Part shown: positions 9,617 to 10,717 of the stretch, in pieces
Numbering within the stretch: the first letter of the stretch is position 1
How the letters are laid out: each line of letters starts with the position of its first letter
Virus record (IMG/VR): IMGVR_UViG_2541047699_000018
Strand: one strand, 5' to 3'
DNA: 17,112 nt
Origin: a virus
Lineage: Duplodnaviria > Heunggongvirae > Uroviricota > Caudoviricetes
Notes under the pieces: model-generated
Told to the model about the DNA's origin: nothing
What the model saw: the letters and a program-made list of their open reading frames with translations, nothing else
Database searches by the model: none
Position numbers and translations under genes: made by a program

Positions 9617-9641
9617 CCAGACACAAAACACAAAAAGAAAC

Positions 9642-9718
9642 CAAAGTATCAAAAATCACTTGCCACACCTTGATACCTTAGTTACCATAAAACAAAGTTC
9701 GTAACTGAGGTATCATCT
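9642..9718 (+). promoter_or_regulatory. OL/pL-like operator-promoter region downstream of cI
   Basis: The same GTATCA motif recurs at 9645-9651, 9671-9677 (reverse) and 9709-9715. Candidate promoter ttgcca (9660-9665), 17-bp spacer, taccat (9683-9688). Confidence 0.4.
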
Positions 9719-9719
9719 C

Positions 9720-10223
9720 ATGATCAATAAAGCTACAACTCTTGACTGTCTCGAAGAACTGAAAAACCTCGGCAGCCTCATTACACTAATAGCAAAAGCA
9801 ACACCTGATGCTACGCTCTCTAGCGATATAGAGTCATGCGCAGGACTGGCATGGGATATGACAAATAGCATATCCAGAAAGCTATCGTCAGCAATGCTTT
9901 TACAGAACAAAAATTCTGCAATCAACAACCGTCTTCGCACCCAACGCGAAGCCTGCGGCTTAACAACCGCCGAACTCGCCAGGCTGCTCGATCTCGATGA
10001 AGAAATTATCATCCAGTGGGAGAGCGGAGAGTATGAACCAACTATCAGTATGCTTATCCCACTGGCAAATATTCTTGGCTGCGATCCGATGTGGCTGTTA
10101 ACTGGTGAGGTTACTCCTCCGGAGCAACCAAAAAGTGAGGAGCAGCAACACCATGACGCATCTCAACAAGTTTGCCCCTTATCTCGCGAAGCTCTTCTGC
10201 GGAAGAACCAATACCAATGGTGA
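9720..10223 (+). CDS. HTH-XRE family DNA-binding protein with N-terminal extension
   Basis: 167-aa ORF, first gene after the OL-like region. HTH LTTAELARLLDLDEEIIIQWESGEYEPTISMLIPLANILGCDPMWLLTGE. C-terminal 40 aa are low complexity. Confidence 0.6.
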   Translation: MINKATTLDCLEELKNLGSLITLIAKATPDATLSSDIESCAGLAWDMTNSISRKLSSAMLLQNKNSAINNRLRTQREACGLTTAELARLLDLDEEIIIQWESGEYEPTISMLIPLANILGCDPMWLLTGEVTPPEQPKSEEQQHHDASQQVCPLSREALLRKNQYQW

Positions 10224-10371
10224 CATAATCGCCGCTTCGCCCTTCAAGGTACATGCGAACATTTTTATCAATCATTGCGGAAACAGTCTCAATATGAAAA
10301 CACTTCTGAGACTCGCTATATAGCAGAACATATAAGTCAGCTGAGGAAGCCATGAAAAAGTTCGAAAACAT
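10111..10371 (-). CDS. Hypothetical protein (uncertain; one of mutually overlapping candidates)
   Basis: 86-aa ORF with SD ggaga 7 nt before ATG 10371. Convergent with the HTH gene and overlaps the divergent 121-aa gene start by 20 bp. An alternative 56-aa plus-strand ORF (10153..10323) covers the same DNA. Confidence 0.3.
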   Translation of the reverse strand: MFSNFFMASSADLYVLLYSESQKCFHIETVSAMIDKNVRMYLEGRSGDYVTIGIGSSAEELREIRGKLVEMRHGVAAPHFLVAPEE

Positions 10372-10717
10372 AACTGTTCTCCATGTTGATGACTTTGATT
10401 ATACAAACCCGGAACTTCTCCCGGAGGTTGTAAAGGCAATAGATGTTGCCGATATAGTGATTAGAGAAAAGAGAATTGTCAAAAACAGGCTCGCATGCAC
10501 TTCAGGAGCAATGACAGAAACAACCTCACAGCAAGATAATTACGAAGGCATTTGTCTGGAGCCTGATTCATTTGCGGTAAATGTTTATCATTTATTGCAT
10601 GCAACACAGGTATTACATATGTCCAGTAATCACGAAACGAAAACACTCGGCAGCGAAATTCTGAGTTTTGCATGTGAGTATACAAAAGCTGCTGCCGAAA
10701 AAGAATTAGCGCAATAA
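10352..10717 (+). CDS. Hypothetical protein
   Basis: 121-aa ORF with SD gagga before ATG 10352; AT-rich; no recognised motif. Confidence 0.5.
   Translation: MKKFENITVLHVDDFDYTNPELLPEVVKAIDVADIVIREKRIVKNRLACTSGAMTETTSQQDNYEGICLEPDSFAVNVYHLLHATQVLHMSSNHETKTLGSEILSFACEYTKAAAEKELAQ

Follow-up and report, generated by a model that had tools for sequence, protein, structure and literature searches.

Results

Operators and a pL-like promoter directly follow the repressor gene

The window analysed here, a 17,112-nt stretch of phage DNA, matches phiP27, PhiR49_2 and 380 E. coli genomes, and its int gene adjoins yecE. An original prediction had singled out positions 9617 to 10717, downstream of cI, as separately acquired, uncharacterised cargo in a slot where exclusion, abortive-infection or toxin-antitoxin functions are common. 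The features from cI to the start of this segment are as follows.

8960-9616: cI, S24-type immunity repressor (Pfam)
9637..9650: OL operator site 1, GAAACCAAAGTATC, an exact GWWWC-N4-GWWWC that pairs with the OR sites in a repeat analysis
9660..9688, plus strand: pL-like sigma-70 promoter, TTGCCA-17 nt-TACCAT, a consensus match only, between the operators
9672..9685: OL operator site 2, GATACCTTAGTTAC, overlapping the spacer and -10 of the pL-like promoter
9701..9714: OL operator site 3, GTAACTGAGGTATC, overlapping the Shine-Dalgarno of the HTH gene

The motif GWWWC-N4-GWWWC occurs exactly five times in the 17 kb, always flanking cI (at 8898, 8922, 9637, 9672 and 9701), against a chance expectation of 0.87, and none of 200 shuffles reached five. 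A sixth operator-like site, with one mismatch, lies at 8866, and OL sites 2 and 3 together form a 15-nt inverted repeat (93%). As predicted, an OL-like cluster separates cI from the flagged genes, with three 14-bp sites and a pL-like promoter between 9637 and 9714. The gene cI ends at 9616, the first operator starts at 9637 with no open reading frame (ORF) in between, and the HTH gene and the two genes termed here A and B all lie beyond OL. The locus is therefore not a rex-type slot, which would lie between cI and OL. Because OL and pL stand immediately 3' of cI without an intervening ORF, the 167- and 121-aa genes can be placed as repressor-controlled early-left genes in the position of N.

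The segment is indeed less GC-rich than the replication module (0.429 versus 0.533), but the low GC extends beyond it: cI has 0.434 and the following 1.5 kb of the left arm 0.426, the same composition, so that AT-richness marks no island. Gene A, at 0.441, is similar to the genes around it. An Rfam scan found no RNA family within the flagged segment, and literature searches returned no description of the HTH gene, gene A or gene B.

The first pL gene encodes an XRE-type protein with an N-terminal hairpin

9720-10223, plus strand: HTH gene, whole ORF, 167 aa, phrog_4739
9720..9932, plus strand: N-terminal helical-hairpin domain, residues 1-71, which travels with the immunity cassette
9933..10110, plus strand: XRE helix-turn-helix domain, about residues 72-130
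10111..10223, plus strand: C-terminal 37-codon tail, read-through across the 3' end of gene A

The prediction of a 167-aa HTH-XRE protein with an N-terminal extension of about 70 aa was borne out, with residues 72-126 matching Pfam HTH_3 (PF01381; E=3.8e-11, 43.3 bits, cut-off 23). Over its full length the protein belongs to phrog_4739 (E=3.6e-99), a family without functional annotation. Substitutions in the XRE domain favour the third codon position (179/128/244 by position), and those in the 37-codon tail are distributed 107/172/100, with an excess at position 2, where gene A has its wobble base. Relatives of the protein stop at 135-138 aa, carry a frameshift in the tail region or possess a second HTH. 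The last 37 residues, as this pattern shows, are unconstrained read-through over gene A.

The solved structures closest to the HTH domain are P22 C2 (E=3e-6) and the 434 repressor, and the protein scores 49 bits against the DicA subfamily of NCBIfam, under the 101-bit cut-off. Its recognition helix is acidic (LDEEIIIQWE), whereas a Salmonella homologue (locus L007) carries the canonical VTTQAVSLWE, which leaves canonical DNA binding by the 167-aa protein uncertain; a repeat search of 10200-11120 for candidate HTH-binding sites gave nothing convincing. Pfam returned no N_peptide match in the protein, whereas the first pL gene of locus L008 does match PF25694/PF11438. Searches of PADLOC-DB v2 gave only generic HTH matches, such as RmrA and CapH, and comparison with toxin-antitoxin families (Pfam, NCBIfam, PADLOC) yielded only sub-threshold, generic antitoxin-HTH matches.

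The antisense 86-aa frame is a conserved gene

10105..10323, plus strand: 72-aa ORF with a GTG start, not a gene; codon-position substitutions 111/10/40 in 10224-10351
10111..10371, minus strand: gene A, 86 aa, phrog_6104, a conserved uncharacterised family
10272..10439, minus strand: 55-aa ORF with a TTG start, not a gene; codon-position substitutions 10/111/40
10352..10717, plus strand: gene B, 121 aa, phrog_5451, the 5'-most 20 nt shared with the 5' end of gene A
10379..10383, minus strand: Shine-Dalgarno of gene A, GGAGA, 6 nt before the ATG at 10371
10454..10482, minus strand: candidate A promoter inside gene B, TTGACA (10482-10477), 17 nt, CACTAT (10459-10454)

The predicted 167-, 86- and 121-aa ORFs were confirmed, but the second minus-strand ORF encodes 55 aa rather than the 56 reported. 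Ribosome-binding sites had been claimed for all three overlapping ORFs; just one, the 86-aa ORF, has such a site. No Shine-Dalgarno was found for the 72- or the 55-aa ORF, and the former matched no family in Pfam or PHROG. The expectation that one of the overlapping ORFs is real proved correct for the 86-aa frame, gene A: in 10224-10351, a stretch without a plus-strand gene, substitutions fall 40/10/111 across its codon positions, and its dN/dS over residues 13-72 is 0.09-0.16. The product is a full-length member of phrog_6104 (E=1.4e-49), again a family without functional annotation. An alignment of the A family holds 22 invariant residues, with the motif V-L-x-(Y/W)-S-x-S-Q-x-C-F-H-I-E ... 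N ... D-Y, and an AlphaFold2 model gives a beta-beta-alpha-beta-alpha fold with a core pLDDT of 89-93. A profile search recovered 372 relatives (cluster representatives) in unrelated contexts and taxa. By these comparative measures, gene A is a real coding gene under strong purifying selection, and the 72- and 55-aa ORFs are noise.

The RefSeq genome examined shows a gap in its annotation where gene A lies, as PGAP does not call it, and the gene overlaps two plus-strand ORFs, both of which would suit an annotation artefact, that is, an ORF held open by plus-strand constraints. The data contradict this reading and leave it scarcely credible: the codon-position signal comes from a stretch free of plus-strand genes, dN/dS is about 0.1, the fold prediction is confident and the relatives recur in unrelated settings.

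Neither A nor B matches a Pfam or NCBIfam family; in PADLOC, B matched nothing and A only Cas11a at E=0.03, which is noise. The earlier statement that no family is recognisable thus stands for the 86- and 121-aa products in these three collections, but not for PHROG, which places all three proteins in families of unknown function; as these families carry no functional annotation, the description of the three genes as uncharacterised is upheld. Gene A had no match in the PDB, and PDB profile searches with the A and B families gave nothing credible. Among the 23 A-family members and 10 long members scanned with Pfam, no domain was shared; the one informative result was a member fused to an XRE HTH, and on this fusion A may work with XRE domains. 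A GIY-YIG nuclease was considered for A and rejected by sequence: hhalign against UPF0213 proteins gave a probability of 0.2%, and Pfam listed no GIY-YIG match for the 23 aligned members at E up to 1. A further gene, of 85 aa and downstream of dnaB (2702-2959), was compared with A and is not its paralogue.

A first contig scan for close relatives of A returned nothing, and tblastn searches of 50,697 phage records, with A and two distant homologues as queries, gave matches in only 4. Comamonadaceae prophages and some metagenomic contigs carry co-directional A-family genes just after a primase/helicase gene, without a B-like partner, so antisense placement and pairing with B are not universal. 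The functional phage phiP27 carries a disrupted gene A, and IS3-family insertions break the gene in other contigs, which indicates that it is dispensable for the phage.

Gene B joins a small N-terminal domain to a helical hairpin

Gene B is a full-length member of phrog_5451 (E=1.7e-83), which likewise has no functional annotation. In its AlphaFold2 model, residues 5-47 form an N-domain and residues 74-120 a C-terminal helical hairpin, with a disordered linker (49-68) between them. The RefSeq annotation covers just the C-terminal 68 aa of B. Salmonella and Citrobacter homologues, about 30% identical, retain an ORF of 121 aa, and dN/dS for B is about 0.3-0.5. Gene B is real, and its product has two domains. 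The C-domain is similar to the N-domain of a 230-aa HTH protein, P0139 (BLASTP, 43% over 47 aa, E=1e-9), and phrog_4836 matches both B and the HTH protein. By this homology, which shows only through the P0139-type N-domain, the B hairpin is a paralogue of the N-terminal extension of the HTH family. Direct comparison of the B hairpin with the window's own HTH extension, which is of a different hairpin type, showed no significant similarity, and a search of the PDB with the B model returned only generic helical hairpins.

Several of these properties would fit A and B as a toxin-antitoxin-like pair whose 5'-overlapping antisense transcripts add control at the RNA level. Both proteins are small, B has the architecture typical of antitoxins, with a disordered linker between a small folded N-domain and a helical tail, A is far more constrained than B (dN/dS of about 0.1 versus 0.3-0.5), divergent A/B-like pairs also occur in distant lineages, and the coordinates require that the two mRNAs overlap. 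We nevertheless consider such a pair decidedly unlikely, as A and B diverge over a 20-nt 5' overlap rather than sharing one operon like the genes of type II modules, A and the HTH gene are convergent, and neither A nor B matches a toxin-antitoxin family in Pfam, NCBIfam or PADLOC. Moreover, A stands alone in many genomes, and natural prophages exist in which A is destroyed and B intact, or B truncated or interrupted and A intact.

Gene A has its own apparent expression signals

The Shine-Dalgarno of gene A is invariant in five divergent lineages, wobble bases included, and M1 can be taken as the start since the homologue P0008 lacks the internal Met7. At the candidate promoter, GTTTTTGA.AA is contiguously invariant in alignment A6, and over the -35 the wobble bases of all four B codons (42-45) are invariant, while neighbouring conserved codons vary at wobble. 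The candidate falls under the promoter-scan threshold, its -10 is weak (3/6), and it is unrecognisable upstream of the L008 and L015 homologues; no terminator for A was found. Gene A runs opposite to the plus-strand pL operon here as well as in Salmonella, Citrobacter and an N-type lambdoid. As the apparent promoter of A lies inside B and runs against pL, A is probably made when pL is silent. Among the three genes, the antisense A would be the only one with the layout of a lysogen-expressed accessory gene. Genes that oppose a lytic operon and are transcribed independently of it are typical accessory loci of prophages (PMC7067206).

This layout bears on whether one or more of the genes, most plausibly A, could be expressed by the prophage as a factor for superinfection exclusion or abortive infection. 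Gene A is moron-like in that it opposes the lytic operon and has its own predicted promoter, the area beside the repressor is a known moron hotspot, with rexAB and bstA as examples (PMC7067206), and one distant A-homologue adjoins an Mrr-type restriction gene and a DUF4160/DUF2442 pair. Against this, the exclusion, abortive-infection or toxin-antitoxin function suggested originally left no signature in our searches, PADLOC giving generic HTH matches only; A has no known effector domain and, by eye, nothing that is obviously a long hydrophobic stretch; B and the HTH gene, behind OL and pL, should be silent in a lysogen; other members of the A family lie in replication modules; and the block is conserved across immunity types, not variable. 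An exclusion role is therefore improbable in our judgement.

The HTH-A-B block is constant beside six repressor types

Across 83 related loci, the block from 9933 to about 10760 is unchanged beside six repressor/immunity types, and A is present in almost all of them. Prophages of Salmonella and Citrobacter show the HTH, convergent A and divergent B order again, with proteins 30-70% identical, and the trio is found beside S24-type cI as well as short repressors. These observations contradict the proposal of separately acquired, variable cargo: in the suggested comparison of lambdoid prophages, the slot is conserved across immunity types and genera. The flagged stretch is the conserved start of the repressor-controlled early-left (pL) operon of a phiP27-like E. 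coli prophage at yecE, and not imported cargo.

The order in a true N-type lambdoid is cI, N and then an A-homologue convergent on N, whose divergent 71-aa neighbour resembles the B N-domain (hhalign E=1e-4); a second divergent pair of this kind, like A and the B N-domain, occurs in locus L015 (E=6e-4). The divergent neighbour in locus L097 was considered as a B homologue and rejected.

To the left of 9933 many loci have no homology, which makes this position a breakpoint, and the six types of hairpin N-domain pair 1:1 with the six repressor types in the 83 loci, while the HTH domain is nearly identical. Such pairing could reflect an immunity-specific circuit in which the HTH hairpin recognises a component of its own immunity cassette, for example its cognate CI or Cro, B acts as a hairpin-only competitor and A as its antagonist; the HTH protein, as first pL product, would then lock in the switch or modulate it, much as an anti-repressor or a second repressor does. 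Apart from the perfect co-variation beside a near-constant HTH domain, this idea draws on the hairpin-only paralogue B two genes away, the hint of a non-DNA role in the acidic recognition helix, the one A domain fused to an XRE HTH, and the annotation of phrog_4836 members as 'CII-like regulator'. The 1:1 link could be plain linkage, since the two types would co-vary through simple linkage if recombination joints lie in the conserved HTH-coding DNA; in addition, Salmonella homologues have a canonical recognition helix, and short or frameshifted variants of the HTH protein are common among its relatives. Such a circuit seems to us unlikely.

Discussion

A model for the early-left genes

The reading that we prefer, and to which we give even chances as a whole, combines a CI-controlled start of pL with A as an antisense protein of the lysogenic phase, B as its lytic partner and the hairpin as the link between B and the regulator. 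Gene A would be transcribed from its own promoter inside B, against pL, and made while CI holds pL off, as in a lysogen. On induction, convergent transcription from pL, together with a fully complementary pL transcript, would shut A down, and B and the HTH protein would appear only once derepressed. Most likely, A would act as an accessory or regulatory protein of lysogeny, B would be its lytic-phase partner, with an N-domain that pairs with A, and the shared hairpin would serve as a dimerisation or partner-binding module that connects B to the regulator. The HTH protein and B probably belong to the early lytic phase, as partners or regulators.

A bolder extension, which we regard as a long shot, is that the HTH gene, A and B constitute an undescribed three-part switch at the start of the early-left operon, acting as an immunity-specific lysogeny-lysis lock or as a discriminator of self from non-self among the many lambdoid prophages that share an E. 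coli host. A, representing a new family of small proteins, would be made only during pL silence; B, made from pL, would bind A by its N-domain and the regulator by the shared hairpin; and through its immunity-specific hairpin the regulator would tie the circuit to its own type of CI/Cro.

The analysis corrects the gene map of a prophage region that is very common in E. coli, Shigella and Salmonella, where RefSeq misses A, cuts B from 121 to 68 aa and lengthens the HTH protein by 37 unselected residues. It also defines a broad, unnamed family of small proteins (372 cluster representatives) with a confident fold prediction and no known relative. A hairpin that tracks repressor type beside an identical HTH-A-B block offers a concrete, testable hint of how lambdoid prophages in one host might hold their early regulation apart, and, if A is expressed in lysogens, the locus would be a compact model for control by a promoter within a gene and by convergent transcription.

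Comparison with known systems

In lambda, rexAB occupy the interval from cI to OL and share a transcript with cI. The same arrangement is described for bstA of Salmonella BTP1, and the region beside cI is known for mosaicism and accessory loci (PMC7067206). The HTH-A-B genes also neighbour cI, but here OL and pL follow cI directly, the 167- and 121-aa genes are repressor-controlled, and there is no sequence similarity to rexAB or bstA. Like lambda N, the HTH gene comes first in the pL operon, and in the true N-type lambdoid the A-homologue follows N in the same convergent orientation; the first pL product here is an XRE HTH (HTH_3) rather than an arginine-rich antiterminator.

Among solved structures, the HTH domain finds its best relatives in XRE-family phage repressors: P22 C2, the 434 repressor and Cro, and DicA. 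The 167-aa protein differs from them in carrying an N-terminal hairpin in place of a C-terminal oligomerisation or S24 domain and in its acidic (DEE) recognition helix, and many of its relatives have two tandem HTH domains; nor is it the immunity repressor, which is the S24 cI. Morons of the type of ST64B STMMW_20121 are genes transcribed independently and in antisense to a lytic operon; gene A likewise opposes the lytic early operon, and a promoter is predicted for it, but tblastn found no close A homologue and no terminator was found, and A, unlike a moron, is neither sporadic (83 loci) nor deviant in base composition (GC 0.441).

Coliphages 186 and P2 use switches built on convergent promoters, and lambda uses OOP for antisense control of cII. 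Similarly, the candidate A promoter faces a strong lytic promoter, so that transcription of one should interfere with that of the other, and the transcripts would be fully complementary across A. The arrangement here differs in that about 750 bp and two coding regions lie between the promoters, and in that the antisense transcript encodes a conserved protein.

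Genomic setting and early-left control signals

The 17-kb window comprises the early region of an E. coli prophage of the phiP27-like type, integrated beside yecE. The stretch singled out by the original prediction (9617-10717) shares 99.9% identity with chromosomal sequence from 116 complete E. coli genomes, and is matched at 100% by phage PhiR49_2 from 9933 on (75% of the query) and at 94% by the Stx2e phage phiP27. Every ORF listed in that prediction is present, and the AT-richness is real (GC of 0.429, versus 0.533 in the replication module) but marks no island, since base composition is the same in cI (0.434) and in the following 1.5 kb (0.426). 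The features are:

Left of ~8850, minus strand: cro-like gene, two Rha-type genes, replication genes, antiterminator
cI and everything rightward, plus strand: last genes xis and int
9637, 9672 and 9701: three right-hand operator sites, GWWWC-N4-GWWWC
Among these three sites: pL-like promoter, motif match TTGCCA-17-TACCAT
9720-10223, plus strand: HTH gene, 167 aa, XRE type
10111-10371, minus strand: A, 86 aa (phrog_6104)
10352-10717, plus strand: B, 121 aa (phrog_5451)
10482-10454, minus strand: candidate A promoter, TTGACA-17-CACTAT, upstream of A and within the B coding sequence

The cI gene encodes a LexA/S24-type repressor. Its longest ORF (243 aa) starts at 8885, within the operator region; the likely start is 8960 (218 aa, MKSLGERL...), which is favoured by RefSeq and by a strong Shine-Dalgarno sequence, GAGAGGAGAA. 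The predicted OL-like operator cluster after cI was confirmed: the 14-bp palindrome GWWWC-N4-GWWWC occurs five times in the window (0.87 expected by chance; 0/200 shuffles gave five), including two copies between cro and cI, where a third carries one mismatch.

Elsewhere in the window, C4 antisense RNA (7566-7653, minus strand, 75 bits) and isrK (7675-7751, minus strand, 62 bits) gave gathering-level Rfam matches, both inside the 282-aa 'Rha' ORF (6960-7808), towards its 5' end. This region resembles a c4/antirepressor module of the P1 immI type within the early-right operon, in which case the real 'Rha' protein probably starts downstream of the RNAs. A 96-aa ORF (11656-11946, plus strand), which strongly matches a MarR-type winged-helix family (phrog_1687, E = 1.3e-24) and is unannotated in the RefSeq genome and in PhiR49_2, fills the annotation gap after a 193-aa gene. 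The ead/Ea22-like gene (12508-13193) is split into overlapping 60- and 208-aa ORFs and bears the RefSeq label 'frameshifted', which makes it a probable pseudogene in this prophage.

An antisense gene between the HTH gene and B

Three overlapping ORFs, all credited with ribosome-binding sites by the original prediction, were compared across eleven related E. coli, Salmonella and Citrobacter loci. Of the three, only A (86 aa, minus strand) is a gene. Within 10224-10351, which has no annotated plus-strand gene, substitutions number 40/10/111 at A-frame codon positions 1/2/3; the identical substitutions fall 111/10/40 in the frame of the 72-aa ORF (10105-10323, plus strand) and 10/111/40 in that of the 55-aa ORF (10272-10439, minus strand). 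These two ORFs were ruled out as genes, as neither has a ribosome-binding site and the substitutions fit the A frame. Residues 13-72 of A show a dN/dS of 0.09-0.16 (Nei-Gojobori), and 22 invariant residues are kept in full-length homologues at identities down to 58%. In an AlphaFold2 model, the core (~residues 11-70) adopts a beta-beta-alpha-beta-alpha fold with block-averaged pLDDT of 89-93. The start is the ATG at 10371, with GGAGA 6 nt upstream; the internal Met7 is missing in one homologue. In the RefSeq record examined, A is absent from the annotation and the 121-aa ORF is reduced to its 68 C-terminal residues.

The HTH protein and B share a hairpin

The last 37 codons of the HTH gene (10111-10223) overlap the 3' end of A and are unselected in the 167-aa frame (substitutions 107/172/100 by codon position). 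Relatives end at 135-138 aa, are frameshifted there, or first pass through a second HTH domain; the single-HTH form appears to derive from a tandem-HTH ancestor by deletion between the repeated 'CDP.WLLTG' ends. The recognition helix of the window protein, LDEEIIIQWE, is unusually acidic (that of a Salmonella homologue is canonical), so its binding to DNA is uncertain.

For B, an ORF of exactly 121 aa is also found in Salmonella and Citrobacter at ~30% identity, and overall dN/dS is ~0.3. In its model, a disordered linker (residues 49-68) connects a small N-domain (5-47) to a helical hairpin at the C terminus (74-120). This hairpin has a homologue in the N-terminal extension of a 230-aa protein, a very common member of the HTH family (43% identity over 47 residues, E = 1e-9), which explains why phrog_4836 matches both B and the HTH protein. 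Thus the '70-aa N-terminal extension' noted in the HTH protein exists, but is a recognisable module that also forms the tail of the neighbouring gene. In the 194-bp non-coding gap 3' of B (10718-10911), TTATTGC/TTATTGT repeats at 10738, 10790 and 10839 may serve as binding sites or belong to a secondary promoter.

The module is constant across immunity types

Among 83 loci with the HTH gene, six repressor clusters are paired 1:1 with six N-terminal hairpin types, while the HTH domain, A and B hardly differ between the six groups; this near-constancy contradicts the idea of separately acquired, variable cargo. The hairpin of the first pL protein (9720-9932) comes in at least six unrelated-looking sequence types, and in many loci similarity to the window ends exactly at 9933, the start of the HTH domain. 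Functional specificity, such as contact with a cognate CI or Cro, could underlie the 1:1 link, and so, just as well, could simple linkage in which the conserved HTH-coding DNA acts as the recombination joint. The same gene order, with A opposing the HTH gene and diverging from B, is seen again in prophages of Salmonella and Citrobacter whose short repressors have no S24 domain; there, A and B overlap by 20 nt at their 5' ends, as in the window, and A and the HTH gene by roughly 100 nt at their 3' ends.

A profile search with A (E of 1e-3 or better) retrieved 372 cluster representatives, mostly of 60-110 aa, with the motif V-L-x-(Y/W)-S-x-S-Q-x-C-F-H-I-E ... N ... D-Y; the family had no match in Pfam, NCBIfam, PADLOC or PDB sequences. 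In a true N-type lambdoid, an A homologue comes directly after N, in convergent orientation, and a 71-aa gene divergent from this homologue resembles the B N-domain (hhalign E = 1e-4); a second such divergent pair is found on one metagenomic contig. Fusion to an XRE HTH was seen in one family member. Among Comamonadaceae prophages and other contigs, the A-family gene lacks a B-like partner and comes after a primase/helicase gene of the same orientation, a hint that the family is tied to replication modules in other phage lineages. Distant A-family genes lie immediately 3' of Toprim/AAA_25/DnaB-like primase-helicase genes in loci L099-L103 (Xenophilus, Polaromonas, Comamonas, Variovorax, Delftia) and L011/L012, and in some of these pairs stop and start codons overlap.

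A candidate promoter and a possible expression switch

The candidate A promoter has a weak -10 and falls below detection by a generic promoter scan; a terminator scan found none for A. In the five lineages compared here, about half of synonymous sites differ. The -35 is spelled by B codons 42-45, and the wobble bases of all four are nevertheless invariant, as is the A Shine-Dalgarno sequence, whereas every wobble position varies in the adjoining, equally conserved ADIVI codons of B. This DNA-level constraint exceeds the needs of the B protein and supports the candidate promoter.

With CI on OL, pL would be silent and A would be transcribed towards pL and translated. Induction would drive pL transcription head-on through the A promoter, yielding RNA fully complementary to A mRNA, and A would be switched off while the HTH protein and B appear. 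Since divergent pairing recurs, the B N-domain would be the best candidate partner of A, and the shared hairpin may be a dimerisation or partner-binding module joining B with the regulator. Genes that run antisense to a lytic operon from a promoter of their own are a typical kind of prophage accessory locus (PMC7067206). We hold the anatomy of the module, as described, with high confidence; anti-correlated expression of A versus the HTH protein and B is plausible but falls somewhat short of probable, and the proposed protein partnerships are doubtful.

A is dispensable for a working phage

In phiP27, 520 nt (5608-6127) replace window positions 10107-10264, removing the last two-thirds of A, and several related viral contigs have an IS3-family element inserted in A or in the A-promoter/B region. 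Taken together, these natural disruptions, the divergent arrangement of the genes and the absence of matches to known families argue against A and B being a classical toxin-antitoxin pair; for A as a defence factor, a PADLOC search gave no positive evidence. The phiP27 replacement carries an unrelated plus-strand ORF of 82 aa that matches nothing in Pfam, and the annotated phiP27 'L09' is no homologue of A. The independent insertions, of ~1.25 kb, lie near 10440 (L071/L073/L076), 10326 (L084) and 10190 (L095), with ORFs of 98-100 and 272 aa in L071 and L084, typical of the IS3 family, and of 99 and 241 aa in L095. Three separate insertions within 250 bp suggest a hotspot or selection against A.

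Comparison with lambda

Although largely correct as an observation, the original prediction is not supported in its reading of acquired exclusion cargo. The stretch is an early-left module, conserved and uncharacterised, that includes an overlooked gene of a new family on the opposite strand, and there is a small chance that it constitutes a genuinely new regulatory circuit. Nor is it the exclusion-gene slot of lambda: OL/pL lies directly 3' of cI, so the rex position is empty, and the 167-aa gene, as the first cistron of a repressor-controlled early-left operon, occupies the position of N.
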